Assembly: GCA_044375195.1 (NCBI GenBank)
Contig: JBILNB010000015.1
Span: 7,619-71,618 of the forward strand
Direction of reading: 5' to 3'
From: Rubrivivax sp.
GTDB taxonomy: Bacteria; Pseudomonadota; Gammaproteobacteria; Burkholderiales; Burkholderiaceae_C
DNA length: 64,000 bases
Shown here: one piece after another, positions 17,998-44,247 of the stretch
Numbering within the stretch: position 1 is the first letter of the stretch
Layout of the letters: every line of letters starts with the position of its first letter
Position numbers and translations under genes: made by a program
Notes under the pieces: generated by a model
Told to the model about the DNA's origin: nothing
Databases searched by the model: none
Seen by the model: only the letters and a program-made list of their open reading frames with translations

Positions 17998-18013
17998 CGG
18001 CAAGGGTTTGCCG
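17998..18013. promoter_or_regulatory. Palindromic enhancer candidate CGGCAA-N4-TTGCCG
   Basis: CGGCAAGGGTTTGCCG in the flhA/fliK divergent gap. Confidence 0.65.
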
Positions 18014-18047
18014 GTCACGGTTCTTGCTTTGTGGTGTCACGGTTCTT
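18014..18047. repeat. Direct repeat GTCACGGTTCTT x2, 22-bp period
   Basis: Exact 12-mers at 18014-18025 and 18036-18047. Confidence 0.7.
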
Positions 18048-18103
18048 TCCTGAGACATCCGTGCAAGACGTGTATTCAGAGCAAATGCTAGAAGGGCCCT
18101 CAT

Positions 18104-21073
18104 ATGGCTGATCCGCTGTCCCCGGCTGCGGCGCCGGCGACTGGAGCCGATTTCCTTGCGCCGGCGACGCTCGTGCGCGGCGACGCCGCCCGTGCGCCCG
18201 GCGTGCCGGCGTCCGCCGAGGCGGTCGGCGAGAGCTTCGACGCGCACTTGCAGCGCGCCCGCAGGCTTCAGCGCGGTGAGGCGCCTGGTGCCGATGCCGG
18301 CGCGCAGGGCACCGTCATGCCGCCTCCTGGCGGCATGGTGTTGCCGTCCGGCATGGGTGCGGCCGGTGTGGCGCCCGACGACGTCGTGGCGGAAGCGGTG
18401 CCCTCGCCGCTGGATCCCTTTGCGGCCGTGCCGCCGCCGGGCGTGCCGACATCGCCTGCCGCGCGGGACTTGACCGCCGGGCGGACCGAAGTCTGGTCCT
18501 TAGAAGAGGCGCAGGGGTTTGCGGGGGCGGGTCCCGCGGCGCAGGCGTCTGCGCGCGCGAGCGCCGGCGTCGTCCCTGTCGAGGCCACCGCGGTTGCGCT
18601 TGCCTCCCGTGCGGCGGCCGGGCCTTGGGCCGTACCTGGCCCCACCCCTGAAGCGGGTCGGGCGCCGCAGGCGGCGGAGTCGTCTGCGCCCCCGGGCGCA
18701 CCGGCGCTTTCCGCTGCGGCGCCGACCGACGCTCAGGGGGCGTGGGCAGGCCGACGGCAGCTGGCGCAGGCCGCGGACGGTGCACCGCCGCATCGAGACG
18801 CTCGTGCCGAGGGCGATGGAGTCTTCGCGGGCGCCAGCCTGCGCGCGGAGCTCCTGGCGCGCGGCGACGGCCCGCCCGTCGACAACGTCGCGCGCGCGTT
18901 CGAATCGGACGTCGCGGCCCGGGCCCGGGCGTTCCCGGTCGGCGTGATCGACACCGCGGCGCGGTCTCGCGCTTCCACCGATCTCGATGTGGATGCGGCG
19001 TCGGCTGAATCGGCGCAGGCGGTGTCCGCACTCGGCGCTGCGCCGCAGGCTGCCCCGTTGCAGCAAGACGTTCGCACCGACAGCGGCGCGGCCTTGCAGG
19101 CGCGGGCCTTGTCTGCGACCCGGTTCGAGACCGCGCCGCTGGCGCAGACGCCGGTGCAAGGGCCGTCCGAGCCGAGAACCCTGTGGGCGCCTGGCGTGAC
19201 GGCTGATGCGGCTGCTGCGGGTGGGGGGAGGGCGGCTGCTGACCCGCGCCCTGGCCTGGAGCCGGCCGGCGCGCGGGCACGAGCGCGCGGAGCTCAGGCA
19301 TCCGCTTCGCCCTTGCCCGTGGAGTTTTCATCCCGGCGCGCCGGGCTCGGCCGGCCCGGCTCGGTGCCGCCTCAGGCTTCCGAGCCAGGCCTCACGTCGG
19401 CGGTGTCCGGTTCGGCCTCACTGCCCCCTGGGTCGATCCCGGTGGCGCGAGCGGATGCGTTCGTGGCGGCCGGCGTGAAGGGGTCGACGCCGGGGCAGGA
19501 GGCTGCGGGCGAGGGCGCGCGCGCTGGCGCACCTGCCGCACCGCCGCAAGCCTTCGACCGCACGGTCAGCGCCGCGTCCCCCGACGTGATCAGCGGCGAA
19601 CGGGCGGGCAATGTCTGGCAGAACGGCGCGAGCGCAGGCTTTCCGGTACCGAGCGGTGCCCAGGAGCGCGTGACCACCCGAGCGCCGGGGCAGACGGCGG
19701 CGGGCGAGGGTGCCCGCGCTGGCGCACCGGCCGCACCGCCGCAAGCCTTCGACCGCACGGTCAGCGCGGCGTCCCCCGACGTGATCAGCGGCGAATGGGC
19801 GGGCAATGTCTGGCAGAACGGCGCGAGCGCAGGCTTTCCGGTACCGAGCGGTGCCCAGGAGCGCGTGACCACCCGAGCGCCGGGGCAGGAGGCTGCGGGC
19901 GAGGGCGCGCGCGCTGGCGCACCGGCCGCACCGCTGCAAGCTTTTGACCGCACCGTCAGCGCTGCGGTTTCCGACCTGATCCTTGGCGAGCTGGCGGGCA
20001 AGGCCTGGCGCAACGGCGCGGGTTCAGGCCTTTCGGGACCGAGGGGAGACAACGGGAACGCGGCCAACCAGGCCGCGGCCCAGGCGACCCTGGCTGCCAG
20101 TGGGGCGTCGCTCGATCCCGGGCGGGCCCTGCAATTCGCGCCGCTGGGCCCCGGGATCGACCTGATGGTCGGTCCCGAGCCCGAGCCCGCCATGCAGGAC
20201 CTGCTGGAGTTCGCGCGTGCCAGCGGCATCGGCGCCGACGCCCTGGAGCGTCTCTTCGGGCCGCAGGCGTCTACCGGATCGCGCTTGGGCGGCGGGGTGT
20301 CTCAAACATCGCTACCTACGCAAACAACGCAAACAGCGACATATCAGCAAACGACGCAAGCGCTGCCGGCGCCGCTTCCTGGCGCGTCGGCCTCGACCCT
20401 TGTCGCGCCGCCCTGGCTGGCGGCGGCAAGCCGTGTGGATGCGCGTGTGGACGGGGCGTCGGCGCGTCCCCGGAGCGCTTCGTTCGACGTCGACGGGGTG
20501 GATGCCCTGCTGGCGCCGACCGCCGCGTCCGGCGAGCGGTCGGATGTCCCGGCGTCGCCCGTGCTGTCTTCCGCCGCCGCCCCTTCGTCGGCTGCCGCGC
20601 AGCCCGCGCCCGCGCAAGCCGTGGCCGGCGCGGCGGTGCCGCCCGTCAGCTATGCCGAGATGTCCCATCGCGTCGCCCAGGCCGTGGCTTCGCGCATGGT
20701 GGCGGGTCTGCGCGAGGGCAGCGGCTCCCTGCGCCTGCAACTCGAGCCCCAGTCGCTGGGCCGCGTCGAGGTCCAGATGGCGCTCCAGGACGGCCGGCTC
20801 GAGGCCACCATCGCCGCGCATCAGGCCGGCACGCGAGATCTGCTGACCGACGGCATCGTGCGGCTGCGGGAGACGCTCGGACAGCTCGGCATGAATGTTG
20901 CGGTGATCAACGTCATCGATGGGTCCGGTGGCCGAGGCGACGGAAAGCCGACACGCCAGCGCCCCGGAGATACCGCCTACTCGCGCCAGGGCGCCGGCGC
21001 GGGCCGGGTGGAGGGTGCCTCGGAGGCCGGGCGGCCCAGTCGTGGCGTCAGTGGCCTGGATGTCTGGGCCTGA
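18104..21073 (+). CDS. fliK: Hook-length control protein FliK, 989 aa
   Basis: Low-complexity Ala/Pro N-terminal region, C-terminal T3S4 domain LRLQLEPQSLGRVEV...LRETLGQLG; heads the fliLMNOPQR-flhB run. Confidence 0.9.
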   Translation: MADPLSPAAAPATGADFLAPATLVRGDAARAPGVPASAEAVGESFDAHLQRARRLQRGEAPGADAGAQGTVMPPPGGMVLPSGMGAAGVAPDDVVAEAVPSPLDPFAAVPPPGVPTSPAARDLTAGRTEVWSLEEAQGFAGAGPAAQASARASAGVVPVEATAVALASRAAAGPWAVPGPTPEAGRAPQAAESSAPPGAPALSAAAPTDAQGAWAGRRQLAQAADGAPPHRDARAEGDGVFAGASLRAELLARGDGPPVDNVARAFESDVAARARAFPVGVIDTAARSRASTDLDVDAASAESAQAVSALGAAPQAAPLQQDVRTDSGAALQARALSATRFETAPLAQTPVQGPSEPRTLWAPGVTADAAAAGGGRAAADPRPGLEPAGARARARGAQASASPLPVEFSSRRAGLGRPGSVPPQASEPGLTSAVSGSASLPPGSIPVARADAFVAAGVKGSTPGQEAAGEGARAGAPAAPPQAFDRTVSAASPDVISGERAGNVWQNGASAGFPVPSGAQERVTTRAPGQTAAGEGARAGAPAAPPQAFDRTVSAASPDVISGEWAGNVWQNGASAGFPVPSGAQERVTTRAPGQEAAGEGARAGAPAAPLQAFDRTVSAAVSDLILGELAGKAWRNGAGSGLSGPRGDNGNAANQAAAQATLAASGASLDPGRALQFAPLGPGIDLMVGPEPEPAMQDLLEFARASGIGADALERLFGPQASTGSRLGGGVSQTSLPTQTTQTATYQQTTQALPAPLPGASASTLVAPPWLAAASRVDARVDGASARPRSASFDVDGVDALLAPTAASGERSDVPASPVLSSAAAPSSAAAQPAPAQAVAGAAVPPVSYAEMSHRVAQAVASRMVAGLREGSGSLRLQLEPQSLGRVEVQMALQDGRLEATIAAHQAGTRDLLTDGIVRLRETLGQLGMNVAVINVIDGSGGRGDGKPTRQRPGDTAYSRQGAGAGRVEGASEAGRPSRGVSGLDVWA
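19490..20020 (+). repeat. 195-bp (65-aa) in-frame tandem repeat, ~2.7 copies, inside fliK
   Basis: Units start at 19490, 19685 and 19880 (PGQEAAGEGARAGAPAAPPQAFDRTVSAAS...). Copies 1 and 2 are nearly identical; copy 3 decays. Confidence 0.95.
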
Positions 21074-21155
21074 GGCGTGCGCTTGCTGATGCGCGCCCCC
21101 GCAGGGGGATGGGTCAACCCGGGAGCGGCCCTTCGTTGACTCGAGAGTGACGCAG

Positions 21156-21740
21156 ATGGCTGAGGAAGAAAAGCAGGCAGAAGGCAAACGCAAGCTGCCG
21201 TTGTTGAAGGTGCTCGTGCTGGTGACCGGCGCGCTCGTCCTGCTGGGTCTGGTGGTCATGGCCTCGCTGGTGCTGACCGGCTACTTCGACAAGGTGGACG
21301 AACGCTCGGTCGAGGCGCAGCTCGAGCAGGTCCGCCGCGAGGCTGCGGCGTCGGCGCCTGCGCCCGGCAAGCGCGCCAGTGACGCTGACCGTGGCGCCAA
21401 GGCCAAGAAGGAGCAGCCGCGCTACGAGTACCGGTACCTGGAGTACGAGCGCCCGCTCGTGGCCAACGTCGCCAGCTCGCGCCGGGTAATGCAGGTGCAG
21501 ATCGCCTTCATGACCCGGTTCGACGAGCGCGTGACCAACAACCTGAAGAAGCATGAATTCGCGCTGCGCTCCGCGGCGCTGGATGTCATGCGGCAGGCCA
21601 CCGAGGCCGAACTCGGCAACCCGGACTTCCGCAAGATCCTCGGCGAGCGGCTTCGCACCGAGATCAACGCGGTGCTCGAGAGGCTCGAGGAATTCGGCGG
21701 CGTCGAGGAGGTGTACTTCACCTCCTTCGTCGTGCAGTGA
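21156..21740 (+). CDS. fliL: Basal-body-associated FliL (copy 1)
   Basis: N-terminal TM, LVANVASSRRVMQVQIAF, GVEEVYFTSFVVQ. Confidence 0.9.
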   Translation: MAEEEKQAEGKRKLPLLKVLVLVTGALVLLGLVVMASLVLTGYFDKVDERSVEAQLEQVRREAAASAPAPGKRASDADRGAKAKKEQPRYEYRYLEYERPLVANVASSRRVMQVQIAFMTRFDERVTNNLKKHEFALRSAALDVMRQATEAELGNPDFRKILGERLRTEINAVLERLEEFGGVEEVYFTSFVVQ

Positions 21741-21771
21741 GGGCGCAGCCCGTCAGCGGGGTGTTCGTACC

Positions 21772-23105: not shown

Positions 23106-23131
23106 AGAGGGCCGGGCGGGCGGCAGCAGGG

Positions 23132-24216: not shown

Positions 24217-24247
24217 AGCGCCTCGGTCTCGACAAGGAAGGGCTCTC

Positions 24248-24517: not shown

Positions 24518-24551
24518 CGCGGGATCGGCGCAGCGGCCCGGGACAGCCATC

Positions 24552-25322: not shown

Positions 25323-25324
25323 CC

Positions 25325-26488: not shown

Positions 26489-26517
26489 ATCACGCCGAGC
26501 ACCGGGACCACGACACC

Positions 26518-27962: not shown

Positions 27963-28553
27963 TTACTGCACGACGAAGGAGGTGAAGTACACCTCCTCGA
28001 TCCCGCCGAAATTCTCCAGCCGGTCGAGAACGGCGTTGAACTCGGTGCGCATCTTCTCGGCCATCAGCTTGCGGAACTCGGGCTTCTGGACCTCGGCTTC
28101 CACGCTCTGCCGCATGATGTCGAGCGCGGCCGAGCGCATCGCGGACTCGTGGCGCTTGATGTTGTTCACGACGCGGTCGTCATAGCGTGTCATGACGGCG
28201 ATCTTCACGAGCATGAAGCGCTTGGACCCCGACAGGTTCGCGAGCAGTTCCTTCTCGAACTCGACGTACCGGTACTCGAAGCGTGCCTGTTCGGGCGACG
28301 CCTTGGTCATCAGCTTCGGCGCGGCGCCTGACGCCCCTGGCGCCGCGCCGTCCGCAGCCCCGCTGCCGGACTGCGTGCCCTTGGCCTCAGCGGCCTCTGC
28401 GGCCAGGGACTCCTTGTTCTGGAAGAAGCCCGTGAAGGCCAGGGTGCCGACGATCGATCCCCCCACCAGGACCAGCACGAGCAGCACCGCCACGATCAGC
28501 AGCAGCATCGAGGGCTTCTTGCCCCCTTCGGTTTCCTGGGTCTCATCGGCCAT
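27963..28553 (-). CDS. fliL: Second FliL paralog
   Basis: Colinear with copy 1 (LLANLSGSKRFMLVKIAV; GIEEVYFTSFVVQ); has its own sigma54 promoter. Confidence 0.9.
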   Translation of the reverse strand: MADETQETEGGKKPSMLLLIVAVLLVLVLVGGSIVGTLAFTGFFQNKESLAAEAAEAKGTQSGSGAADGAAPGASGAAPKLMTKASPEQARFEYRYVEFEKELLANLSGSKRFMLVKIAVMTRYDDRVVNNIKRHESAMRSAALDIMRQSVEAEVQKPEFRKLMAEKMRTEFNAVLDRLENFGGIEEVYFTSFVVQ

Positions 28554-28621: not shown

Positions 28622-28636
28622 GCAATATCCGTACCA
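28622..28636 (-). promoter_or_regulatory. Sigma54 promoter of the second fliL
   Basis: TGGTAC-GGATA-TTGC on the minus strand. Confidence 0.8.
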
Positions 28637-28725: not shown

Positions 28726-28741
28726 CGGCAGGTTCTTGCCT
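28726..28741. promoter_or_regulatory. Variant enhancer palindrome
   Basis: CGGCAG-GTTC-TTGCCT, 90 bp upstream of the fliL2 -24 element. Confidence 0.5.
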
Positions 28742-30536: not shown

Positions 30537-31475
30537 ATGCAGGGATGGAGCGTTCGCTGGGACCTGGCCGACAGCGGCGACTGGGACCGTCTGCATCACC
30601 AGGCCGCGGGCAGTCTGCAGCAGTCGTGGCGCTACGGGCAGGCCATGCAGGCGCTGGGCATCCCCTGCCTGCGCGCGCTGGTGCGCGACGGCGACCGGAT
30701 CGTCGGCGCAGCGCAGTTCCTGCAGCAGCGCCTTCCCTGGTTCGTCCGTTCTGCCTTGTGCAGCCGCGGGCCGCTGTGGCACCCGGAGCTCTCGGTGGCG
30801 CAGCAGGCAGTCGCAGTCGAGATGATCCGCAAGACTTTGCCGGTGCGGCGCCCGCGCGTGGCCATCTTCACGCCCGAGCTCGAGCAGCACGAGGCCCTGC
30901 GCGCAGGCAACCCCTGCGCCGGGCTGCGTCGGGTGATGACGGGATACTCGACCGTGCTCGTCGACCTGCGCCGCAACGCCACCGACCTGCGGCGCCGGCT
31001 CGACGGCAACTGGCGCAACCGGCTGGTGGCGGTCGAGCGCTCCGCCGTCGAGGTCTGCGACGAGAGCGCCGACGCGCCGGCGCACGAGGCCATGGTGGCC
31101 GCAGAGTGGGAGCAGCGACGCAGCCGGGGCTACTTTTCGCTGCCGCGGGCGTTCGTCGCCGCGTGGCGGGTCGTGCCGCCTGCCGAGGGTGCCACCCTGC
31201 TGCTGTCGGCGCGGCTGGCCGGCGAGCGAGCGGCCGCGGTCCTGTTTCTCGTCCACGGGCGCACGGCGACCTACCACCTGGGCTGGACCGGGCCGGCGGG
31301 CCGGCAGTCCCACGCCCACAACCTCCTGATGTGGCGGGCCTTCGTCGCGCTGCAGGACCGCGGCGTGGAGGTGCTGGATCTCGGCGGTGTGGACACGGTT
31401 CGGGAGCCCGGCATCGCGCGGTTCAAGATCGGCACCGGCGGGCGCGTCTGCACGCTCGTGGGCAGCTACGCCTGA
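30537..31475 (+). CDS. FemAB-like GNAT acyl/aminoacyl transferase
   Basis: LQQSWRYG, RGPLW, TVLVDL...WRNRL, ATYHLGW, HNLLMW, LDLGG, GIARFKIGTGG. Confidence 0.8.
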   Translation: MQGWSVRWDLADSGDWDRLHHQAAGSLQQSWRYGQAMQALGIPCLRALVRDGDRIVGAAQFLQQRLPWFVRSALCSRGPLWHPELSVAQQAVAVEMIRKTLPVRRPRVAIFTPELEQHEALRAGNPCAGLRRVMTGYSTVLVDLRRNATDLRRRLDGNWRNRLVAVERSAVEVCDESADAPAHEAMVAAEWEQRRSRGYFSLPRAFVAAWRVVPPAEGATLLLSARLAGERAAAVLFLVHGRTATYHLGWTGPAGRQSHAHNLLMWRAFVALQDRGVEVLDLGGVDTVREPGIARFKIGTGGRVCTLVGSYA

Positions 31476-33999: not shown

Positions 34000-35178
34000 C
34001 TAGCGCTTCAGCCCGTACTTGGCCAGCTTCTCGATCAGTGTGGTGCGCTGCAGACCCAGCAGCCGCGCCGCCTGGGAGACGTTGCCCCTGGAGCGGTCCA
34101 TCGCCTGCTCGATGAAGCTGCGCTCGATCGAGTTGATGCGGTCGCGCAAGGAGATTCCCTGCTCGCCCAGCAGGTCCAGGCCGAGCGCCATCCGGATCGC
34201 GTCCTCGGCGGGATTGGTGGCGGCCTCGTCGCCTGCCGGGGCAGGGGCCTGGGCGCCGTCGAGTGTCGCCTCGGCCTCGGCTTCCTGTGCCGTGTCTTTC
34301 CAGGCCGTCTCATGCAGGAGGTGCTCGGCGCCGGGCGCGTCCGACAGCAGCGCCTCGCGCGGCGGCCCGGACGTCTGCGCCCCGCTGCCGGCCCGGGCGC
34401 GGGCCAGTGCCGCCGGCAGCATCCACACCGGGATGGACTCCAGGCTCAGGACCTGGGACGGGTACAGGGCCGAGAAGCGATCCACGAGATTGGACAGTTC
34501 GCGCACGTTGCCGGGCCAGTCGTAGGCGCGCAGCGCCTCCAGCATGCAGGCGTCGAAGGTCACGGGCTCGAAGCCGGGCGCACTGTGATGACGGGCGTAG
34601 AAGGACAGCATCTCCGGCACGTCCTCCGGACGCTCGCGCAAGGGCGCGGTGCGCATCGGGATGACATTGAGCCGATAGAACAGGTCCTCGCGGAACCGAC
34701 CCTGCTGGACGTCCCGCTCCAGGTCGCGGTTGGTGGCGGCGACGATGCGCACGTCGATGGGCACGCTTTCAATCGAGCCCAGCGGCTCGATGCGGCGCTC
34801 CTGCAGCACGCGCAGCAGCTTCACCTGCGTGTCCACGGGCAGGTCGCCGACCTCGTCGAGGAAGAGCGTGCCGCCGTTGGCCATCTCGAAGCGTCCGGTT
34901 CGGTGGGCCAGCGCGCCGGTGAAGGCTCCGCGCCGGTAGCCGAAGAGCTCGCTCTCGATCAGGTCCTTGGGAATGGCGCCGCAGTTGATCGGGATGAAGG
35001 GACCGTCCTGCCGAGGCCCGCTTGCATGCAGTGCCTGGGCCACCAGTTCCTTGCCGGTGCCGCTCTCACCGGTGATCAGCACCGTGGCGCGGGACGCCGC
35101 AACGGTCTGGATGAGTTCGCGCAGCACCCGCATGGGCTCGCTGCGGCCGATCAAGGGCGGTGTGGGGGCTCCTCTCAT
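34000..35178 (-). CDS. fleQ: FleQ/FlrA-like sigma54 activator lacking an N-terminal regulatory domain
   Basis: Starts immediately at the AAA+ domain (LIGRS, GESGTGKE, GAFTGA); FleQ-like HTH AARLLGLQRTTLIEKL. Confidence 0.75.
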   Translation of the reverse strand: MRGAPTPPLIGRSEPMRVLRELIQTVAASRATVLITGESGTGKELVAQALHASGPRQDGPFIPINCGAIPKDLIESELFGYRRGAFTGALAHRTGRFEMANGGTLFLDEVGDLPVDTQVKLLRVLQERRIEPLGSIESVPIDVRIVAATNRDLERDVQQGRFREDLFYRLNVIPMRTAPLRERPEDVPEMLSFYARHHSAPGFEPVTFDACMLEALRAYDWPGNVRELSNLVDRFSALYPSQVLSLESIPVWMLPAALARARAGSGAQTSGPPREALLSDAPGAEHLLHETAWKDTAQEAEAEATLDGAQAPAPAGDEAATNPAEDAIRMALGLDLLGEQGISLRDRINSIERSFIEQAMDRSRGNVSQAARLLGLQRTTLIEKLAKYGLKR

Positions 35179-35249: not shown

Positions 35250-35282
35250 TGTCGGCGATTTGACACCTGTCGAAGAGTTGGC
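35250..35282. promoter_or_regulatory. Tandem FleQ-type boxes upstream of fleQ
   Basis: TGTCGG-CGAT-TTGAC (35250-35264) and TGTCGA-AGAG-TTGGC (35268-35282); same pattern as the box at 10954-10968. Confidence 0.55.
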
Positions 35283-35458: not shown

Positions 35459-36823
35459 ATGAGCCGCGCCCACTGGCCCGAGGAGACGCTGGACACCGAC
35501 GTCGGCTCGCCGCGGCTGTATGACGCGGGCGCCGTCGAGGACTGGGTGGACATCCTGGTCGCGCGTCGCAGCAGTCTGCTGCTGTGCGGTGACGACTCGG
35601 CCCTGGACCGGCAGGCGCAGCTGCTGCTCCAGGGGCTGCGCAAGGCCGGCGGCGTGGAGACCGCGCTCATCTTCGACATGGACCGCTCGCTGCTGCTCGA
35701 GCGCTTCAACCGCCTGCTGTCCGACATGACGGTGGACCAGGCGCGTGCGGCGGCCCCGGGCGTTGCTCGCGTCTGGGTGTTCCAGGTCCAGGCCGATGCC
35801 GAGCTCGACCAGGCCCGCCTGCTGCTGCGCCTGAGCCAGGACCTGCCCGGCGCCGGCGTGGTCGTGCTGCTGCTCGCCTCCGTGCGGCTGGCACGTGAAC
35901 TGGCGCCCGAGGGCAGTGGCCGGCGCCTGCAGGTGCGCGTGATCGGCGACCCCTGGGCCCGATCCGGCGGCCCCGAGGAGCCGGGCGCCGCGCGCCAGGA
36001 GCCGCCGATGGTGCCACCGTCGGCTGCGTCGGCTTCGGCGTCGGCTTCGGCGTCGGCGACCACGCCGGCGCCCAAGCGCGGCACGAAGCTGCGCACCACG
36101 GTCCTGGCCGGGGTCGCGCTGCTACTGGCGAGTGCAGGTGCGGTCATCTTCCTGCGCCCGGCCGAACTGCGTCTTGCCCTGGGGCCTGTTGCCAAGCCCG
36201 CCGCGGCAGCGTCTGCAGTGGCGCCCGAGGCCTCTGCGCCTGCGTCTGCGGTCGCACAGGCGCTTCCTGCCCCGGCCACGGCATCGGCATCGGCTGCCCA
36301 GGCCGTCGCGGTGGCACCAGCCGCGGCCGCATCCGCCCCTGCCCTCAAGCCGGCGCCAGCGCCCGGGCCGGTTGCAGCGGTCCCGCCCGGCCAGCCGCAG
36401 CCGGCCGCCGCCGGCACGACCGTGCCTGCAGCGGCCGGCAAGAGCTTGCCGCCGACCGGCGACGCCTTGGCCTCGGCGCGCGAGCAGGTGGCACGCAGCG
36501 CCAGCTGGATCGACGCCCAGCCCGAGTCGAGCTGGCTGGTGCAGCATGCGGTGAGCGGGCGCGCGAGCGACTTGCTCGACCTGCGCCTGAGCCAGCCTGC
36601 GCTGGCCGACGCCCGCATCATTGCCACCTTCCGCAGTGACGGGCGCGTGTACTTCGCGCTGGTGTCGGGGCCCTTCGATTCCGCCGCCGACGCGCGCAGC
36701 TTCGAGCAAGGTCTGCCGAAGCTTGCCACGCCCAGCTTCGTGCGCAGCATCTCGCGCGTGAAGAGGGAGCTCGTGGAACCGACGAGCCCGAACGTCCCGG
36801 GCCTGCCGCCGGTCGCGCGTTGA
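35459..36823 (+). CDS. Membrane protein with Ala/Pro linker and C-terminal SPOR-like (DamX-type) domain
   Basis: Cytoplasmic N-domain, one TM, PA-rich linker, WLVQ...YFALVSGPFDSAADARSFEQGLP...FVRSI. Confidence 0.7.
   Translation: MSRAHWPEETLDTDVGSPRLYDAGAVEDWVDILVARRSSLLLCGDDSALDRQAQLLLQGLRKAGGVETALIFDMDRSLLLERFNRLLSDMTVDQARAAAPGVARVWVFQVQADAELDQARLLLRLSQDLPGAGVVVLLLASVRLARELAPEGSGRRLQVRVIGDPWARSGGPEEPGAARQEPPMVPPSAASASASASASATTPAPKRGTKLRTTVLAGVALLLASAGAVIFLRPAELRLALGPVAKPAAAASAVAPEASAPASAVAQALPAPATASASAAQAVAVAPAAAASAPALKPAPAPGPVAAVPPGQPQPAAAGTTVPAAAGKSLPPTGDALASAREQVARSASWIDAQPESSWLVQHAVSGRASDLLDLRLSQPALADARIIATFRSDGRVYFALVSGPFDSAADARSFEQGLPKLATPSFVRSISRVKRELVEPTSPNVPGLPPVAR
36436..36451. 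promoter_or_regulatory. Palindrome CGGCAA-N4-TTGCCG (intragenic)
   Basis: CGGCAAGAGCTTGCCG, ~375 bp upstream of the candidate flgP promoter. Confidence 0.45.
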
Positions 36824-36825
36824 CC

Positions 36826-36840
36826 GGGCTCAAGACTTGC
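36826..36840 (+). promoter_or_regulatory. Candidate sigma54 promoter of flgP
   Basis: GGGCTC-AAGAC-TTGC (GG-N10-GC spacing exact, imperfect -24). Confidence 0.5.
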
Positions 36841-36912
36841 ATGCGGACGCCGAATCCTTGACGGCGGGGCGTCTTGCGCCGCCGTTGTTCGCATCGTCAG
36901 GAGGGAGTGCCG

Positions 36913-37488
36913 ATGTTCAATCGAAGCCGCACGTGGGCGCTGTGCCTGGCAGCCCTGGGTCTGTCGGCCTGTCAGCACGTGGCGCTGCCGCCCATGGGCG
37001 AGAACGCCGCGGAGCCTGCCCGGCCCGTTCGCGACATGAACGCCAAGGAACTCAAGGCGGAAATGTCCGCCGGCGTCCGGGCGCCGAGCCCGCCGGTGTC
37101 GATGATCGAGCCCTTGATCGAGAAGCGCGACACGCTGGTGGCCACGGGCTACGCGGTCGTCAGCGTGCAGAAGCACAGCAACCCGGCCCAGCAGCGCCTG
37201 CTGGCGATCCGGGCCTCCAAGCTCGACGCCTACCGGTCGCTGACCGAGCAGGTCTACGGTCAGTATCTGGACGCGACGACCACCGTGGCCGACATGACCG
37301 TGATGAGCGACACCTTCCGCGCCAAGGTCGAAGGGGTGATCTACGGCGCCGTGCTGGTGAGCATCTCGCCGGTGGGCGACGACACCTACGAGACCTCGCT
37401 GTCGCTGGACAGCGCGGTCGTCAACGACCTGCGGCTGCTGTACCTGGGTCAGCTCGCCTCGAAGCAGCGCGCCCGGCGCGCCCAGTGA
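36913..37488 (+). CDS. flgP: Flagellar lipoprotein FlgP (LPP20 family)
   Basis: Lipobox LSAC; ATGYA, QRLLAIRASKLDAYRSLTEQVYG, RAKVEGVIYGA. Confidence 0.85.
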   Translation: MFNRSRTWALCLAALGLSACQHVALPPMGENAAEPARPVRDMNAKELKAEMSAGVRAPSPPVSMIEPLIEKRDTLVATGYAVVSVQKHSNPAQQRLLAIRASKLDAYRSLTEQVYGQYLDATTTVADMTVMSDTFRAKVEGVIYGAVLVSISPVGDDTYETSLSLDSAVVNDLRLLYLGQLASKQRARRAQ

Positions 37489-37522
37489 CCCGGCCGTGGC
37501 GGGGGGCGCCTTGACCAGGAGC

Positions 37523-38890
37523 GTGGACCGACGGCGCGCAGGCTTGCACAGGCCGCACACCCTGGGCGCGTGCGCGGTCGGCTGCCTGGCGGGTCTGCTC
37601 CTGGCTGCGCTGTCGGAAGGTGTGGCGGCCCAGAACGCACCCCGCGGCGCCGCATCCGCAGCCGCTCCTGCGCCCGCAGCTGCACCCGCACCCGCACCCG
37701 CACCCACAGCGTCTGGTGCCGCCCGCGCGCCTGCGCCTGCTGCCGCGCGTCCGCCCGCCACCGCGCGCGCCCCCGCTGCCGCGGCACGACCGGCGGCCGC
37801 TGCCAGAGCGGGCGCCGTGGCACCCGCCGCCGTTCCCGCGGCCGTGGCTGCTGTTGCGGCGCCGGTGGACGACCCGGAAAAGCTGCTGCAGGCCATCCGG
37901 GCTTCACTCATCGATGCCGCCACCAGCGCCCCCACCCGGGTCGTCAGCTCGGCCTGGGTCGACGAGAGTGGCGCCCTGCACGAATCGACCCAATGGCACA
38001 GCCAGCTTCGCTTGCGGGGGGTGCGGGTGCTGGAGTACCTGGAGCCCGAGAAACCCGAGCGCGACGAAAAGCAACGCCGCTGGAACGTCCAGGCGCTCGT
38101 CGAGCCGGCGGGGCGGCGCTCCGCGGTCAGCGCCCAGGAGTGCCTGGACGCCGTGCGGCCCTGGCGCATGGCCATGCGGCTGGAAGTCAGCCAGGATTCG
38201 CGCCTGCACGGCCCCGATGCCGCGGTGGCGGCGCTGCTGGCCCAGCAGACCCGGGCCTGGTGGGCGAGCCAGGGTGCCAGCCTGCCGCGCTGGTATGCGC
38301 AGGTGCCGGTGCCGGCGTTCGGCCTGCCCGTGGGCACGGCAACGGCCATGCCGCAGCCGCCCTCGGCCTACCAGCAGGCCCTCATCGGCGCGCCGCCCCG
38401 GGTGTCGGGCGCCGTGCTGCGCATGCATCTCACGGCGTCTGCCACCGGTGGCTCCGGCGGGCTGTCTGCCAGCCTCGTCTTCGACGACGGCGACGGCCGC
38501 GTGCTCTGGCGTCAGACCCAGCCCCTCGCCGGCCAGGCGCCGCAGGCTTTCGCCGGGGCCTCCGAACAGGCGGCCCTCGAGGCCTTGCTGCAGCGCTGGC
38601 GCGAGGTCCTGGCCACGCTGGCGCCCTGCGAGTTCCCGCGCTTCGACGTCGTCGCGGCGCCGCAGCAGCGCTGGGTGCTGCCGGTCGGCCCGGAGTCGGG
38701 CTTCCTGCCCGGGCAGCGTGTCTTCATCGCCGACCGTGCCCGCGTGCCCGAGCGCCTGCTCGAGCCCGACGCGCTGGGCCAGACCGCCCTGGCCGAGGTT
38801 GTTTCGGTATCCACCAACGAGGTTGCGCTGCGCCAGGTGGCCGGCCCCCGCCTCAGTGCCGGCGTGCGCTGGGTGGCCTGGCCCCTGTGA
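37523..38890 (+). CDS. FlgT-like periplasmic protein
   Basis: Signal peptide, PA-rich linker, C-terminal PCEFPRFDVV...VGPESGFLPGQRVFI resembling the FlgT C-domain; adjacent to flgP. The N-terminal part is divergent. Confidence 0.5.
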   Translation: MDRRRAGLHRPHTLGACAVGCLAGLLLAALSEGVAAQNAPRGAASAAAPAPAAAPAPAPAPTASGAARAPAPAAARPPATARAPAAAARPAAAARAGAVAPAAVPAAVAAVAAPVDDPEKLLQAIRASLIDAATSAPTRVVSSAWVDESGALHESTQWHSQLRLRGVRVLEYLEPEKPERDEKQRRWNVQALVEPAGRRSAVSAQECLDAVRPWRMAMRLEVSQDSRLHGPDAAVAALLAQQTRAWWASQGASLPRWYAQVPVPAFGLPVGTATAMPQPPSAYQQALIGAPPRVSGAVLRMHLTASATGGSGGLSASLVFDDGDGRVLWRQTQPLAGQAPQAFAGASEQAALEALLQRWREVLATLAPCEFPRFDVVAAPQQRWVLPVGPESGFLPGQRVFIADRARVPERLLEPDALGQTALAEVVSVSTNEVALRQVAGPRLSAGVRWVAWPL

Positions 38891-38900
38891 AGCCCGCACC

Positions 38901-39500
38901 ATGCCCGGAGATGTGCCCATGCAAGCATTCGAGCGCTTCCTGACGGCGGCCCGCCCCCTGTTCGCGCCGATGGCGCGCGCAGGCTCTGCGGGAGCCTGTC
39001 TGTGGCCTGTCGTCCTGGTGGCCGCGGCGCTGGGCGCTGGTCGCGCGCATGCGGCCACGGCCGTCGAGGGGCTGTCCGAGCAGGGTCAGGCGGCGCTGCA
39101 GCACCTGCTGCACCCGCAGGCCGGCGGCGGCGCCGCGCGGGCCGACGGCGCAGCCCATGCCGAGGCCGCCGGGACCCGCGCGCGGGTCGTGCTGCAGCGT
39201 GGCGAGACCCTGGACCGCGTGATCGCCCGCACCCTGCGCGACAGCCCCTTCCGCGTCGAAGTGCTGCGCGAGGCCTACATGCGCCTGAACCGCAGTGCCT
39301 TTCCCCGCGGCACCCCGCAATCGCTCGTGGCCGGCTCGACCCTGGTCGTGCCGACCCCGGCCGACGTGCTCGGTATCGTCGACCCGCAGCGCCAGTGGTC
39401 TGCGCCCCCTGCCCCCGCCCACGCGCCGGCTGCCATGCCGGCACGGGCTGCCACGCCGGCGCTCGACACGGATCGCCGCAACTGGATCCGCTACCCCTAG
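38901..39500 (+). CDS. Exported protein with FimV-type LysM domain
   Basis: Signal ending AHA; RGETLDRVIA...AYMRLNRSAFPRGTPQSLVAGSTLVVP; start at 38901 or 38919. Confidence 0.7.
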   Translation: MPGDVPMQAFERFLTAARPLFAPMARAGSAGACLWPVVLVAAALGAGRAHAATAVEGLSEQGQAALQHLLHPQAGGGAARADGAAHAEAAGTRARVVLQRGETLDRVIARTLRDSPFRVEVLREAYMRLNRSAFPRGTPQSLVAGSTLVVPTPADVLGIVDPQRQWSAPPAPAHAPAAMPARAATPALDTDRRNWIRYP

Positions 39501-39519
39501 CCGGGCGGGGAGCCCGCCC

Positions 39520-40728
39520 GTGAGCCTGCCCCTGCCCGGGTCCGAGACCGTCTCGCTCGCGGCGCGGCCTTCAGCCATCTTCCCGGCGGGGCCCTACCCG
39601 GTGCTCGGCGTGGCGGAGGTGCGCCAGCTCGGGCTGAGCGACTGCCAGATCGTGCGTCCCACGGTCGAGGTCCGCAACGAGCGCCTCACGCTGTTGCTCG
39701 ACGGCAGGGTGATCGAGTGGCCGGGCGGCGCGCCGCCGCGCGTTGGCGCGGGCTCGCCGCTGGCCATGACGGCCTGGATGGTGCGGCTGCTGGCCAACGG
39801 CTCCGCGCAGCTGCTGCCGGTGCGCGGCCGCGAGGCTGCGCCCGAGCCGCCCGTGCCGGCGGCGGGTCTGCCCCGGTCCGACACGCCGGGCGCTGCGGCG
39901 GCGCCCCCGCCGCAGCCGTCCGGGCCGCCGGGCCTGCCACCGCGCTGGGCCCAGTTGCTCGTGCGCCCCGCGACCCTGGCCGCATGGACCGCCGCCCTGC
40001 GGTCCGTGCCCGTCGGCAGCCCGGCACCCGCCCAGGCACCTGCCCAGGTGTCTGCCGGCACCGCCGCCGCGGCGGCGACCCCCATCCCGCCGCCGCTGAC
40101 GTCGTTGATCAGCATGGGCTTGCTCGACGGGGCTGCCCTGCGCGATGCGGTGCGGCGCAGCGGACTGTTTGCCGAGTCCCGGCTGGCGCGCGGCGAGCGC
40201 GTGGGCCTGTCCGACGTCAAGCTGGCCCTGCTGGCGCGGCTCAACAACGCCGACGCCGACACCGGGCCGGCGTCGGCCGCCCTGGCTTCGGCGCTGGAGG
40301 ATGTCGAGGCGGCGCAGTTGCAGTCCCTGGCGGCCAGCGCCGACGGCGGCGTGGTGCTGCATCTGGCGCTGGGTTTCCGGGATGCGCCGCCGCTGTCCGT
40401 GCGGCTGGTCCGCGACCCACCGCCCGCCGGGGGCGACCCTTCGGGTGGCGGCGCCTGGACGGTGGACATTCACAGCCACGGCGGGGCCTGGGGCCCGCTG
40501 TGGCTGCAGACACGCGTCGAGGCCGACGGTCGCATCGGGCTCGTGATGTGGGCCGAGCGCGAAGCGGTGTGCGACGCCGCGCGCGCCGACGCCCAGCGCC
40601 TGGGCGGCCTGCTGAGCGACGAGGGCCTGCGGCTGGAGCGCTTCCAGGTCATTCACGGCGCGCGGCGCGATCCGGTGCCGTCCCAGGCCACTGCGCGCTC
40701 AGGCGCCGTGCTGGACCTCCGGGCCTGA
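39520..40728 (+). CDS. Second protein with FliK-like C-terminal domain
   Basis: WTVDIH...WGPLWLQTRV...MWAEREA...LGGLLSDEGLRL; paired with a FlhB-C-like gene. Confidence 0.65.
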   Translation: MSLPLPGSETVSLAARPSAIFPAGPYPVLGVAEVRQLGLSDCQIVRPTVEVRNERLTLLLDGRVIEWPGGAPPRVGAGSPLAMTAWMVRLLANGSAQLLPVRGREAAPEPPVPAAGLPRSDTPGAAAAPPPQPSGPPGLPPRWAQLLVRPATLAAWTAALRSVPVGSPAPAQAPAQVSAGTAAAAATPIPPPLTSLISMGLLDGAALRDAVRRSGLFAESRLARGERVGLSDVKLALLARLNNADADTGPASAALASALEDVEAAQLQSLAASADGGVVLHLALGFRDAPPLSVRLVRDPPPAGGDPSGGGAWTVDIHSHGGAWGPLWLQTRVEADGRIGLVMWAEREAVCDAARADAQRLGGLLSDEGLRLERFQVIHGARRDPVPSQATARSGAVLDLRA

Positions 40729-40833
40729 ATGGCCGGGAGTCTGTCGCCCATGTCCGCCTTGCACGCCAAGACAGCGCGTCCCGTCCTTGCAAACCCTTGC
40801 CGGGGCCCGAGCCGTGGCTGCGGTTTGCGCCCG

Positions 40834-40848
40834 CGGCCGCATCGTTGC
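40834..40848 (+). promoter_or_regulatory. Candidate sigma54 promoter of the FlhB-C-like gene
   Basis: CGGCCG-CATCG-TTGC, preceded by the variant palindrome TTGCAA-ACCC-TTGCCG at 40787-40802. Confidence 0.4.
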
Positions 40849-40910
40849 GGCGCGCCGAGCGGGCGCGGCGCAAGCCTTCCCGGCCTGTGACGGCCGCACG
40901 AGTGCGCACC

Positions 40911-41222
40911 ATGCCACGTCCACCGCGAGACGCCTACCCCTTCCAGGCCGTGGCCTTGCGCTATGACGGCCTGCGCGCCCCGGTGGTGAGCGCCAAGGGC
41001 GACGAAGACCTGGCGCGGCGCATCGTCGAGGAGGCCCGGCTGCAGGGCGTGCATGTCACCGAAGACCCGCAGCTGCTCGCGCTGCTGGCGCGTCTGGACC
41101 TGGACCAGGAGATTCCGCCCTCGCTGTACGCGGCCGTGGCCGCCATCCTGTCGTGGGTGTACTGGCTGCAGGGCCTGCGTCCGGAGCAGGCGCGTCAGCA
41201 CGACGCAGCCCGAGGGACGTGA
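40911..41222 (+). CDS. Stand-alone FlhB C-terminal domain protein (FlhX/EscU-like)
   Basis: AVALRYDG..APVVSAKG, EDPQL, EIPPSLYAAVAAILSWVY. Confidence 0.88.
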   Translation: MPRPPRDAYPFQAVALRYDGLRAPVVSAKGDEDLARRIVEEARLQGVHVTEDPQLLALLARLDLDQEIPPSLYAAVAAILSWVYWLQGLRPEQARQHDAARGT

Positions 41223-41240
41223 AGCCCACCTCTCAGGCTC

Positions 41241-41651
41241 TCAGGCCTCGGCGATCCCGCGCCCGGCGCCGCGGCCGCGCATCTGCCCGAGGCGGTCGTA
41301 GATCTCCACGCCTTGGAGCGGTGTGCCGGCGGACAGCGCCTGCAGGGCGCCCCGCACGGCTTCGAGGTGGCGCTGCAGCAGCGTCTCGTTGCGGCGGTGG
41401 GCGTCACGGCAGCGCAGCAGCCAGTCGCGGCACTCGGTGTCCTGAACGAAGGTCGCCGCAGCGCGCTCGGGCTCGGTCTGCCAGGCCGACAACTGGGCCA
41501 GCAGCTGTTCCTTGGTGGGCTGCAGACGCTCGAAGTAGCCCAGATCGCGGCGCTTGAGGGCTTCGAACTCCTGGTCGAGCGATTCGAGGAGTTGTTGCAG
41601 CAGTGCGAGCGCGTGCCCGCGGGCTTCCGGGACGCTCCGGGGCTCAGGCAT
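41241..41651 (-). CDS. flgN: Chaperone FlgN
   Basis: EFEALKRRDL...KEQLL, CRDAHRRNETLL, YDRLG; follows flgM. Confidence 0.8.
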   Translation of the reverse strand: MPEPRSVPEARGHALALLQQLLESLDQEFEALKRRDLGYFERLQPTKEQLLAQLSAWQTEPERAAATFVQDTECRDWLLRCRDAHRRNETLLQRHLEAVRGALQALSAGTPLQGVEIYDRLGQMRGRGAGRGIAEA

Positions 41652-41952
41652 CGATCAGCCGCTCGATGGCGACGAAGCTTTCTGCGATGCGGCGGCTGTC
41701 GAGCGGGTAGTTGCCGTCGCGCAGCGCCAGCTTGATGGCTTCGACCTTGCTGCGGTCGAAGGTGTCGGCCTGCAAGGCGCTGCGTGCGGCCTCGCTGAGC
41801 ACGAATTCGTCGCGAGCCGGCGCGGCGGCGACCAGCGCACCGGTGCCGCTGGGGGGCGCATCCGAGGACTCGCTGGCCCGGTCGCTCTGACCGCTGCGCA
41901 CCCCGGCGTCGAACCGCCCGAGGCGGCCGTACATCGAAATCGGGTCGGTCAT
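41644..41952 (-). CDS. flgM: Anti-sigma28 factor FlgM
   Basis: DEFVLS...FDRSKVEAIKLALRDGNYPLDSRRIAES. Confidence 0.92.
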   Translation of the reverse strand: MTDPISMYGRLGRFDAGVRSGQSDRASESSDAPPSGTGALVAAAPARDEFVLSEAARSALQADTFDRSKVEAIKLALRDGNYPLDSRRIAESFVAIERLIDA

Positions 41953-42016
41953 GGTCAGGCTCCTTGAACAGATCGCAGGCTCGGTCGAATGACTGAAATC
42001 CTACTCCTCATGGAGA

Positions 42017-42043
42017 GGTTCGACGCGAAGAACGAGAACTTTA
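42017..42043 (-). promoter_or_regulatory. Candidate sigma28 promoter of flgM
   Basis: TAAAGTTC-N11-GTCGAACC. Confidence 0.65.
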
Positions 42044-42087
42044 GCGTCGAAGCGGAAGTGTCTGGCATGCGGGGCTCCCGGTGCTGC

Positions 42088-42954
42088 TCAGGGTAGGCGG
42101 GCCGCGTTCGGCCCGACGACCACCGCGCTGACGATGCGGTCCGATTCGCGGTTGCGCAGTCGCACGGTCTCGCCGAAGCGCCCGTCCTGCAGGGCTTCGA
42201 GCCTCGCCGTGATCGTCAGTCCGGGCACGCCCTGCATGGTGACGACGATGAACTGCCCTTTTCGCACCAGCAGGGTGGGCTGGATGTCGTTGGTGTAGAG
42301 CACCTGGCCGGCCTGCTTGTCGCGCACCAGTTCCATGTGCTCGAGCCCTGCCGGGTCTTCGATGGGGTCGCCCAGGCCGCGCTGCAGCGGCACGTCGAGG
42401 GTGGCCGCAGTGACGCTCGCGGCCTCGAGCGGCGCGCCGCGGCGCAGGTCCTGGCGCAGCGTCAGCACCTGACGCGGCCGGCTTTCGGGGGGCCGAGGGG
42501 GCAGGGCGGCCGTGGTCGCGTCGCGGCCTGGAGCCGGCGGCGTTGCCGCGCGGCGTTCGGGTGCCACCGGCGGGCCCGCGCCCGGGTCCGCAGGCGGCCG
42601 CGTCGCGGCCGGGTCCTGCGCGCCCCGCAGCGCGACGGTCGAGCGCAGGAAGACCTGCAGGCGCGGCTGGGCGCAGCGCGCCCGCACCGCCTGCAGGTCG
42701 GAGAAGGGCAGGTCGAAGCGCCAGCCGCTGGGGCAGGGCGTCGCGGCCGTGCGGGCGTCGGGTGGCAGGAACAGCGCCCCCGCGGCCGGTGCCGTCGGGC
42801 GCTGCGTCTGCGCCCAGGCCTGGGCGGCCTCGATCAACGGGCCGTCGGCCTTGGGCGGCAAGTCGTTGCCGGCGGCGCCCGTGACCGCGCCGCACAGCAG
42901 GAGTGCCCACACCCTGACGAGCACGAGGAATCGGAAACGGCACGCAGATTGCAT
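42088..42954 (-). CDS. flgA: P-ring assembly chaperone FlgA
   Basis: Signal peptide, SAF domain, LVRKGQFIVV, ALQDGRFGETVRLRNRESDRIVSAVV; start approximate. Confidence 0.9.
   Translation of the reverse strand: MQSACRFRFLVLVRVWALLLCGAVTGAAGNDLPPKADGPLIEAAQAWAQTQRPTAPAAGALFLPPDARTAATPCPSGWRFDLPFSDLQAVRARCAQPRLQVFLRSTVALRGAQDPAATRPPADPGAGPPVAPERRAATPPAPGRDATTAALPPRPPESRPRQVLTLRQDLRRGAPLEAASVTAATLDVPLQRGLGDPIEDPAGLEHMELVRDKQAGQVLYTNDIQPTLLVRKGQFIVVTMQGVPGLTITARLEALQDGRFGETVRLRNRESDRIVSAVVVGPNAARLP
42856..42871. promoter_or_regulatory. Palindrome CGGCAA-N4-TTGCCG (inside flgA)
   Basis: CGGCAAGTCGTTGCCG, 67 bp upstream of the plus-strand sigma54 site. Confidence 0.6.
42938..42952 (+). promoter_or_regulatory. 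Sigma54 promoter of the LysM-transglycosylase gene
   Basis: CGGCAC-GCAGA-TTGC. Confidence 0.75.
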
Positions 42955-43077
42955 GGGAGTCGCGGGTGGCGCTGACGCGAGTGGCGCGCCACAGCCCCCG
43001 GCCGGCGTGCAAGAACGAGGCCAGGGAATCCCGACAGCGCCGCTGCGCAGACCCCCTTTCCCTGGACGATCGACCTC

Positions 43078-44247
43078 GTGCCTCAGGTTCCAGAACGATC
43101 CCCGCTGACCGCCGCGGCAGGCGCGCCCGCCCCGGCACCGCGCCGCGCGGCCCTGGCCGCCGCGGCGACGGACGCCCAGGGCGGCCCTCGCTGGCGCGTG
43201 GTGTCCGGTGCCGTCCTCGGCGAAGCCGGTGACCGTGTCGTGGTGCGCCAGGGCGACACGCTCTGGAAGCTGGTCTCGCAGCGCCTGCAGGCCCTGGGCC
43301 GCGACGCATCGGTGACCGCGGTGCGCCAAGGTGTCAGGGACGTGGCCGCGCGCAACGGCATCGCCGATCCCGCCCGCATCTTCGTGGCTGATGCGCTGGA
43401 CTTCTCGGTGCTGCGCGGTGCGGCTTCGGCGCCTTCTGCGGCCGCGGCAGCCACGCCTGCCGTGCCGTCTGCGGCGCCCGTGGTGCCGCGGATCGCGCCA
43501 GCTGCGGCCCCTGCTGCCGCTCCTGCCACCTCCGCCACCTCCGCCACCGGTAGCGCCCCTGGCACCGGCACCGGCGCGCTGCTCGAGGCCACGCTGGCCC
43601 GGGCGGTGCGCAAGGGCTACGTCCCGGCGGCCGACGTCGATCGCGTGCGCGAGCGCATCCAAGGCATCGCGGCCGCGCAAGGGTTCTCCGTGGACGACCT
43701 GGCCCAGGTGGCCCTGATGGAAAGCGACGGCTTCAACCCCCGCGCCAGCAACGGGCGCTGCTTCGGCATCCTGCAGTTCTGCGAAGGCGAGGGCCGGGGC
43801 GCAGACAGCGTGGGCATGCGCGGGCGCGCCGCCGAGATCACCTCGCGCAGCGTCTGGGAACAGCTCGGCTTCGTCGAGCGCTACCTCGCCGATGTGGGCG
43901 CCGCGAGCGCGTCGCCCAAGGCGCTGGACGACCTCTACCTTGCCGTGCTGATGCCTGCCGCGCGCGCGCAGACCAGTCCGCAGGCTGCGCTCGAGATCCC
44001 CGGTCGCCAGGCGCGGCTGCTGCATGAAGGGGCCGACCGCGCGCGGCCGATCACGCGCGCCTCCCTCGTTGCCGGCCTGCGCCAGCACGCGCAGCAGGTG
44101 CTCGCGGCGGACCTGCCGTCCCGGCCTGCGGCTGCCGCCGGCGGCAATGCGGCGGCCGTGCAGCGGCAAGGCCTTGCCGCCGTCGCGCTGTACGAAGGTG
44201 TCGTCAGCGCCGGTCTCCTGGCCCTGGCTGGCGAGCGGGCGCGTTGA
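43078..44247 (+). CDS. LysM plus lytic transglycosylase (SLT/lysozyme-like) protein
   Basis: LysM VVRQGDTLWKLV...NGIADPARIFV; catalytic-type LMESDGFNPRA and GILQF; no clear signal peptide. Confidence 0.75.
   Translation: MPQVPERSPLTAAAGAPAPAPRRAALAAAATDAQGGPRWRVVSGAVLGEAGDRVVVRQGDTLWKLVSQRLQALGRDASVTAVRQGVRDVAARNGIADPARIFVADALDFSVLRGAASAPSAAAAATPAVPSAAPVVPRIAPAAAPAAAPATSATSATGSAPGTGTGALLEATLARAVRKGYVPAADVDRVRERIQGIAAAQGFSVDDLAQVALMESDGFNPRASNGRCFGILQFCEGEGRGADSVGMRGRAAEITSRSVWEQLGFVERYLADVGAASASPKALDDLYLAVLMPAARAQTSPQAALEIPGRQARLLHEGADRARPITRASLVAGLRQHAQQVLAADLPSRPAAAAGGNAAAVQRQGLAAVALYEGVVSAGLLALAGERAR
44164..44179. promoter_or_regulatory. Palindrome CGGCAA-N4-TTGCCG upstream of the flgB promoter
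   Basis: CGGCAAGGCCTTGCCG, 156 bp upstream of the -24 element. Confidence 0.6.

Follow-up and report, generated by a model that had tools for sequence, protein, structure and literature searches.

The analysed sequence, referred to as the window, comprises 64,000 nucleotides of Rubrivivax sp. (assembly GCA_044375195.1, contig JBILNB010000015.1, positions 7,619 to 71,618 of the forward strand). It has a G+C content of ~70% and carries a flagellar gene cluster in which one palindrome, CGGCAA-N4-TTGCCG (CGGCAANNNNTTGCCG), recurs upstream of sigma-54 promoters. Exactly four perfect matches were found in the 64-kb window, starting at positions 17998, 36436, 42856 and 44164. These are the positions given in the original prediction, which was made from the sequence alone and had proposed the palindrome as part of an enhancer code. 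The element is a 6+4+6 inverted repeat and a perfect dyad, with fixed half-sites and a free spacer, and it fits a dimeric helix-turn-helix (HTH) protein.

Palindrome A (CGGCAAGGGTTTGCCG, 17998–18013) is non-coding and lies between the divergent genes flhA (15772–17886, minus strand) and fliK (18104–21073). The other three copies are located within coding sequence, as the original prediction had noted. Palindrome B (36436–36451) lies within orf35393, where it is read in the frame G-K-S-L-P, palindrome C (42856–42871) within the 5' end of flgA (minus strand) and palindrome D (44164–44179) within the 3' end of orf43078 (43078–44247), in the frame R-Q-G-L-A. An auxiliary CGGCAA half-site (44142–44147, plus strand) is found 22 bp upstream of palindrome D, and its GGCAA is retained in five of six taxa; palindrome D itself is perfect in all six. 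A related dyad, CGGCACGACCGTGCCT (36412–36427), is located 24 bp upstream of palindrome B and is kept in the related loci L004 and L007 (related loci are given by L numbers).

The number of copies was far above the chance expectation. No perfect palindrome occurred in 100 shuffles of the window, and 300 dinucleotide shuffles gave a mean of 0.017 (a maximum of 1). The product of the hexamer frequencies led to an expectation of 0.024. The earlier rough estimate of ~0.01 copies per 64 kb was, thus, of the right order of magnitude. When one mismatch was allowed, six palindromes were observed vs 0.41 expected. Single CGGCAA half-sites were also more frequent than expected (78 vs 51 ± 7). The G+C content is not uniform along the window: positions 36000–44000 are richer in G+C (74–75%) than the remainder (67–71%).

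Two one-mismatch copies were absent from the list of the original prediction. The first (CGGCATGGTGTTGCCG, 18331–18346) is located in the 5' coding part of fliK and is conserved, with orthologues in the fliK 5' region of L008, L009, L010, L088, L089 and L090 and of many gamma-proteobacteria. The second (CCGCAAGACTTTGCCG, 30827–30842) is located within a GNAT/FemAB-like gene, ~1.2 kb upstream of motA, and no promoter could be assigned to it in the window. The original prediction had instead listed near-copies at 28726 and 40787. Both are present, but with two mismatches each, and members of the two-mismatch class have no individual significance in the window. The copy at 28726–28741 (CGGCAGGTTCTTGCCT) is a candidate site only. 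A good sigma-54 promoter of the second fliL gene, fliL2 (TGGTACGGATATTGC, 28622–28636, minus strand), follows ~90 bp downstream of this copy, the centre of which is at ~-124. The copy at 40787 was rejected as an enhancer, as no recognizable promoter accompanies it and the intergenic region is only 15–32 bp long in L007 and L001.

A sigma-54 promoter scan with two mismatches was unspecific in the window (80 matches vs 84.5 expected). Therefore, only promoters with zero or one mismatch or with conservation were used. The flhA promoter (TGGCACAGCGGTTGC, 17927–17941, minus strand) is conserved in L088 and L089, and its predicted start is at ~17915. The flgP-like gene has a sigma-54-like promoter (GGGC..TTGC; GGGCTCAAGACTTGC, 36826–36840, plus strand), which is kept in L001, L004, L005 and L007 right behind the stop codon of the orf35393 homologue. 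The promoters of orf43078 (CGGCACGCAGATTGC, 42938–42952) and flgB (TGGCACGGGAGTTGC, 44335–44349; predicted start at ~44361) are both on the plus strand. The distances from the palindromes to the −24/−12 elements were 57 bp (flhA), 375 bp (flgP), 67 bp (orf43078) and 156 bp (flgB), in agreement with the original prediction. Relative to the predicted starts, the centres of the palindromes are at ~-90 (A), -408 (B), -100 (C) and -190 (D), which are ordinary distances for enhancers and DNA looping.

Palindrome A had been assigned to flhA. The distance of 57 bp to the flhA promoter is in line with this, but the copy lies between two divergent genes and may equally serve fliK. A conserved element, GTCACGGTTCTTGC (18014–18027, plus strand), adjoins palindrome A on the fliK side, and a second copy is present at 18036–18047. 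It is conserved across genera (L008, L010, L088, L089 and L090) and resembles a −24/−12 promoter, except that the GG at −24, which is nearly invariant, is GT here. The lineage of the window yielded no canonical fliK promoter. On the flhA side, a GGTGTCGGAAAnGCA block (17942–17960, minus strand) is located directly upstream of the −24 element and is conserved in L088, L089 and L011. As TGTCGG is half of a FleQ-type box (see below), this block could be a promoter-proximal FleQ contact.

Assembled transcripts from four lake metatranscriptomes were compared with the predicted starts. For flgB, they begin at 44371, 44377, 44390 and 44426, which is 10–65 nt past the predicted start at ~44361, and there was zero RNA cover across 42107–44370. 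For flhA, one RNA contig ends at 17903 (predicted start: ~17915). The cover was too thin for starts beyond that of flgB and, weakly, that of flhA. The support from transcripts is only modest, because the metatranscriptome data consist of contigs, in which DNA may be included. Within the cluster, cover was best at fliS (11334–11742) and flgM (41400–41998), and the contig ends there suggest a promoter of its own immediately upstream of each gene.

Ten related loci were fetched via homologues of orf43078 and EBP1 (an activator described below), with protein identities of 46–87%. All 12 perfect copies in these loci occupy the four orthologous positions. Copy D was perfect in five of six loci, 65–86 bp ahead of the orf43078 stop. 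Copy B was perfect in L004, L005 and L007 and had one mismatch in L001; it is located ~385–395 bp ahead of the orf35393 stop. Copy C, at the 5' end of flgA, was perfect in L006 and L007, with one mismatch in L005. Copy A, in the gap between flhA and fliK, was perfect in L088 and L090, with one mismatch in L089 and a variable spacer. In site-anchored alignments, 11–12 of the 12 half-site columns were invariant, compared with 15–33% of the flank columns (Fisher P=2e-4 to 6e-7), while the four spacer bases varied. The fliS region of a Limnohabitans metagenome-assembled genome (MAG; L010) holds a further perfect palindrome upstream of fliS (15866–15881 of that locus); the corresponding gap in the window is 40 bp long.

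The codons used within the copies are rare ones. The frame of copy D gives R-Q-G/A-L-A with CAA and CTT, and that of copies B and C gives G-K/N-x-L-P with TTG; the Leu codon in copy B is TTG in every locus carrying this copy. In the cluster, TTG accounts for 7.6% and CTT for 3.0% of Leu codons, and CAA for 8.5% of Gln codons. In the orthologues, the arms of the motif are invariant and the rare codons are kept, while the spacers and flanks drift. Because the motif sits in two reading frames and at non-coding sites, with rare codons, selection evidently acts on the DNA and not on the peptide or the RNA.

The palindrome is not restricted to this lineage. A set of 80 loci anchored on flhA, all from other beta- and gamma-proteobacteria, contained 10 perfect copies vs 0.12 expected, and 48 copies with up to one mismatch vs 4.3 expected. 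About 20 copies fall in the 5' coding part of fliK. These fliK copies are mostly in the G-K/N-x-L-P frame, e.g. in pseudomonads, while those of L009, L010 and L016 are in the R-Q-x-x-A frame. In ~16 of the flhA-anchored loci, a sigma-54 promoter is located 200–430 bp upstream of the intragenic fliK copy. In L033, the palindrome is found in the 5' untranslated region of fliK, 36 bp past a perfect sigma-54 promoter. The four perfect copies of the window are upstream of starts; downstream positions are taken by the copy at 18331 and by the fliK copies in ~16 other genera.

The genes of the cluster were assigned by NCBIfam and Pfam scans and by synteny. On the minus strand, fliG, fliF, fliE and the EBP1 gene are followed by fliS, fliA, flhG, flhF and flhA. 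The divergent fliK is followed by fliLM..PQR-flhB, and fliL2 (27963–28553, minus strand) by motAB. The EBP2 gene (minus strand) precedes orf35393, the flgP-like lipoprotein gene, two unnamed genes, a FliK-like gene and a stand-alone FlhB C-terminal-domain (FlhB-C) gene. Next come flgN, flgM and flgA (minus strand), and then orf43078 and flgBCDEFGHIJK. The earlier label of orf43078 as a LysM-SLT gene was not supported, as Pfam gave only a sub-threshold LysM fragment of 11 residues. The FliK-like gene (Flg_hook domain, 39520–40728) and the FlhB-C gene (40911–41249) form a pair whose synteny is kept in every relative. Both FlgE, the hook protein (936 aa, 46116–48926), and FlgK (910 aa, 53107–55839) are very long, and the lengths are kept in relatives (FlgE: 935 aa). 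By FlhA, the nearest named relatives (70–78% identity) are Comamonas, Limnohabitans and Burkholderiales MAGs, and the window sequence recurs in lake-water metagenomes.

Two sigma-54 activators are encoded in the cluster. The first, EBP1 (486 aa, 9383–10843, minus strand), comprises a pseudo-receiver, an AAA+ domain with GAFTGA and an HTH_8 domain. Its closest solved relative is the AAA+ domain of Vibrio cholerae FlrC (252 bits vs 207 for FleQ); the model of EBP1 shares 49–52% identity with this domain at a TM score of 0.86–0.89. Homologues of EBP1 are labelled 'response regulator FlrC' by the Joint Genome Institute (JGI). The HTH_8 core LGISPRTLR(Y/H)K was invariant over 29 homologues that are 50–94% identical to EBP1. 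A Pfam receiver domain was present in 0 of the 120 FlrC-annotated family matches listed. No canonical FleR or FlrC gene was found within the fetched gamma-proteobacterial loci.

The second activator, EBP2 (392 aa, 34000–35178, minus strand), has an AAA+ and an HTH_8 domain. It has no N-terminal FleQ domain, and the protein begins at the AAA+ domain. It is closest to Pseudomonas aeruginosa FleQ (313 bits, compared with 273 for FlrA and 218 for FlrC), and its recognition helix is nearly identical to that of FleQ (QRTTLIEKLAKYG vs RRTTLVEKMRKYG). Best-match scores and homologue names, hence, uphold the earlier gene labels: the 'fleT-like' gene is FlrC-type (EBP1), and the 'fleQ' gene is FleQ-type (EBP2).

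A second box, related to the published FleQ consensus, was found at both activator genes. The site at 10955–10968 (GTCAATAAACCGAC on the gene strand, minus) is centred at ~-118 relative to the FlrC-like gene start and agrees with 11 of the 13 positions specified in the FleQ consensus of P. aeruginosa, GTCaNTAAAtTGAC. The sigma-54 promoter (10856–10870, minus strand) of the operon led by the EBP1 gene and continued by fliEFG follows 98 bp downstream of this box (start to start); the spacer is AT-rich (44% G+C). The box and a promoter spacing of 98–100 bp recur in L088, L089 and L090. The other site (GTCGGCGATTTGAC, 35251–35264) is found between EBP2 and orf35393, ~70 bp from the EBP2 ATG. At this place, TGTC-N8-GACA is kept in L001, L003, L005 and L007 and is degenerate in L004. 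The joint consensus of the box is GTCRA-N4-YCGAC. The ATG of the FlrC-like gene is exactly 12 nt past the GC of the −12 element (10841–10870) in four of four taxa (the window, L088, L089 and L090). Therefore, its mRNA would have little or no leader and could not accommodate a ribosome-binding site.

GTCGG-N4-TTGAC occurs in the window only at 10955 and 35251, a count of weak significance, as 2 of 100 shuffles reach two copies. Neither TGTC-N8-GACA nor the Pseudomonas FleQ consensus is enriched in the window, so the support for the second box rests on its conserved position. The original prediction had placed this box only at the fleT-like and fleQ promoters. The two sites stood as the sole ones and are conserved, but no recognizable −24/−12 promoter was found for the FleQ-like gene itself. 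The position of the box at 35251 would fit autoregulation of EBP2 or control of the divergent gene.

As judged from its position and conservation in the sequences compared, the palindrome is a genuine, evolutionarily conserved enhancer-type element upstream of flagellar sigma-54 promoters. We infer which protein reads which box, and that binding activates transcription. The palindrome is probably the upstream activating sequence of the later flagellar sigma-54 promoters, read by the FlrC-like EBP1, in a cascade from a FleQ-type to an FlrC-type activator. At the top of this cascade, the GTCRA-N4-YCGAC box, which precedes the sigma-54 promoter of the EBP1–fliEFG operon by ~100 bp across the AT-rich spacer, would fit control by the FleQ-like EBP2. 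A dimer of EBP1 would then bind the palindrome via its C-terminal Fis-type HTH, with one CGGCAA half-site per monomer and the half-sites spaced one helical turn. The AAA+ ring of the bound protein would contact sigma-54 RNA polymerase at the −24/−12 element by DNA looping, and ATP hydrolysis by the ring would open the promoter. The putative targets are flhA and/or fliK, the flgP-like gene, orf43078, flgB and perhaps fliL2.

The literature on FlrC is close to this proposal. In two papers, CGGCAA is given as the motif bound by FlrC, with credit to Correa and Klose (2005), and one of them reports conserved CGGCAA copies at the Pseudomonas PflgB and PflgF. The palindrome is, hence, less novel than implied, as its half-site had already been proposed for FlrC. 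For the full 16-bp dyad, no description was found in the literature searched, and the structural paper on FleR gives no site. A review counts the fliK operon, the flgB operon, FlgP/O/T and FliL among the members of the FlrC class III. The copies at flgB, the flgP-like gene and fliK/flhA mark essentially this gene set.

The likeness to V. cholerae FlrC, thus, comprises the half-site attributed to it in those citations, the overlapping targets (fliK operon, flgB operon, FlgP and FliL), the related AAA+ domain and enhancer action at sigma-54 promoters, a feature of FlrC that is presumed here for the palindrome. The differences are in the form of the site and in the protein. Here, the site is one perfect 16-bp inverted repeat with four perfect copies upstream (−90 to −408), whereas FlrC sites are typically downstream; flhA carries a site, Arg replaces the phospho-Asp in EBP1, and no kinase gene is adjacent.

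Several observations weigh against a reading of the palindrome by an FlrC-type activator. The most distant syntenic relative, L003, had no copy with up to two mismatches at the orthologous positions. In Vibrio and Pseudomonas, flhA belongs to class II. The N-terminal 120 residues of EBP1 matched neither a receiver (REC) profile in Pfam nor a sequence in the PDB. The structure model shows a (beta-alpha)5 fold for this part (pLDDT ~82–88), with Arg57 at the end of beta3 in the phospho-Asp place, and the whole-model matches are receiver-plus-AAA+ regulators. Because the receiver-like fold has Arg57 instead of the phospho-Asp, EBP1 is, on this model, a pseudo-receiver protein. No fleS-type kinase gene adjoins the EBP1 gene, whose neighbours are small ORFs on the fliS side and fliE; the whole window was not searched for kinases. 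As both a phosphorylatable receiver and an adjoining kinase gene are lacking, EBP1 is not a canonical FlrC. The review mentioned above places FlrC sites usually downstream of the start site, where they are, nevertheless, true enhancers. A high-throughput SELEX (HT-SELEX) study of Pseudomonas syringae gives TGTATACA as the FleR motif and not CGGCAA, and this was the only high-throughput motif found for a FleR. Finally, a hetero-oligomer of FleQ and FleT recognizes the related class III sites of Rhodobacter (Cereibacter) sphaeroides via the DNA-binding domain of FleQ.

A wider role is possible, at somewhat less than an even chance. CGGCAA-N4-TTGCCG may be the general operator of the FleR/FlrC branch in beta- and gamma-proteobacteria, including an intragenic downstream enhancer in fliK that is kept by codon choice in either of two frames. 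In the lineage of the window, it would be read by a kinase-less, DNA-binding pseudo-receiver activator.

The strongest alternative, which we nonetheless consider unlikely, is that the palindrome is read by the FleQ-like EBP2 or by a mixed FleQ-like/FlrC-like ring as in R. sphaeroides, with the partner changing the site use. In that species, FleQ activates class II and FleQ/FleT class III. The resemblance to its Fla1 system is considerable: the activator gene comes first in a fliE-fliF-fliG operon with a sigma-54 promoter, the FleQ protein has no N-terminal (receiver) domain, a 'late' site is present at flhA, and nearly all remaining flagellar promoters are in the later class. Moreover, the conserved GGTGTCGGAAA block, half a FleQ-type box, adjoins the flhA −24 element. 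However, FleT lacks a DNA-binding domain and depends on the hetero-oligomer for its function, whereas EBP1 keeps its invariant HTH_8. The recognition helix of EBP2 matches that of Pseudomonas FleQ, the consensus of which is GTC..GAC rather than CGGCAA. Pseudomonads, in which FleQ and FleR are separate proteins, also carry the palindrome at fliK. The original prediction had derived two enhancer variants that separate class II (FleQ alone) from class III (FleQ plus FleT) promoters. Two distinct conserved boxes were indeed found, and a code of two tiers is plausible in outline and largely in line with the FleQ/FlrC hierarchies already described, but the FleQ/FleT scheme is not required, because EBP1 has its own invariant HTH.

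It is less likely again that another protein (a repressor, a nucleoid protein or a cell-cycle regulator) binds the palindrome and ties it only indirectly to sigma-54 activation. The differing FleR motif from HT-SELEX would agree with this, as would the conserved non-canonical element that adjoins palindrome A on the fliK side. The enhancer positions at five promoters are typical, though, the half-site equals the proposed FlrC motif and the gene set matches the FlrC class III.

We consider it very improbable that the repeats are RNA hairpins acting as stability, processing or termination signals. Each copy can form a hairpin of 6–7 bp (−14 to −16 kcal/mol in a 32-nt context), but the z-scores were only −0.95 to −2.25, the arms are invariant with no covariation, the copies occur on either coding strand and no U-tract follows any copy. 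In addition, copy A should not be transcribed, because it lies between two divergent promoters. With unremarkable folding and no covariation of the arms, the RNA reading was rejected. Least credible of all is a by-product of a conserved peptide G-K/N-x-L-P, as read in copies B and C and at many FliK N-termini: it was rejected given the R-Q-x-x-A frame of copy D and of the fliK copies of L009, L010 and L016, the non-coding copies A and L033, the rare Leu codon TTG throughout and host proteins that are mutually unrelated.

The proposed cascade from EBP2 to EBP1 also has parallels in other systems. It shares with the Pseudomonas FleQ box and the FleQ-to-FleSR cascade the GTC-N8-GAC geometry and a box at the promoter of the operon of the second activator. 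It differs in that EBP2 has no N-terminal FleQ domain, the box is not enriched in the window and no fleS-type kinase gene is adjacent. Enhancers of the NtrC family (e.g. glnA) are likewise dyads for Fis-type HTH dimers, ~100 bp or more upstream of −24/−12 elements, at times with an AT-rich bend between. Their sequence is different, and NtrC uses tandem strong sites, whereas the promoters here usually have a single strong dyad, accompanied by no more than a weak auxiliary half-site.

The palindrome reveals no new mechanism; it would be a known kind of switch with a sharper consensus. It would provide a concrete operator for FlrC/FleR-type activators, whose sites are poorly defined in the literature searched. 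It also illustrates how the choice of codons within genes for the flagellum (fliK, flgA and two that are unnamed) is constrained by regulatory DNA. As one operon carries a FleQ-type box and the others the palindrome, the flagellar hierarchy of uncultured freshwater Burkholderiales may become readable from sequence.

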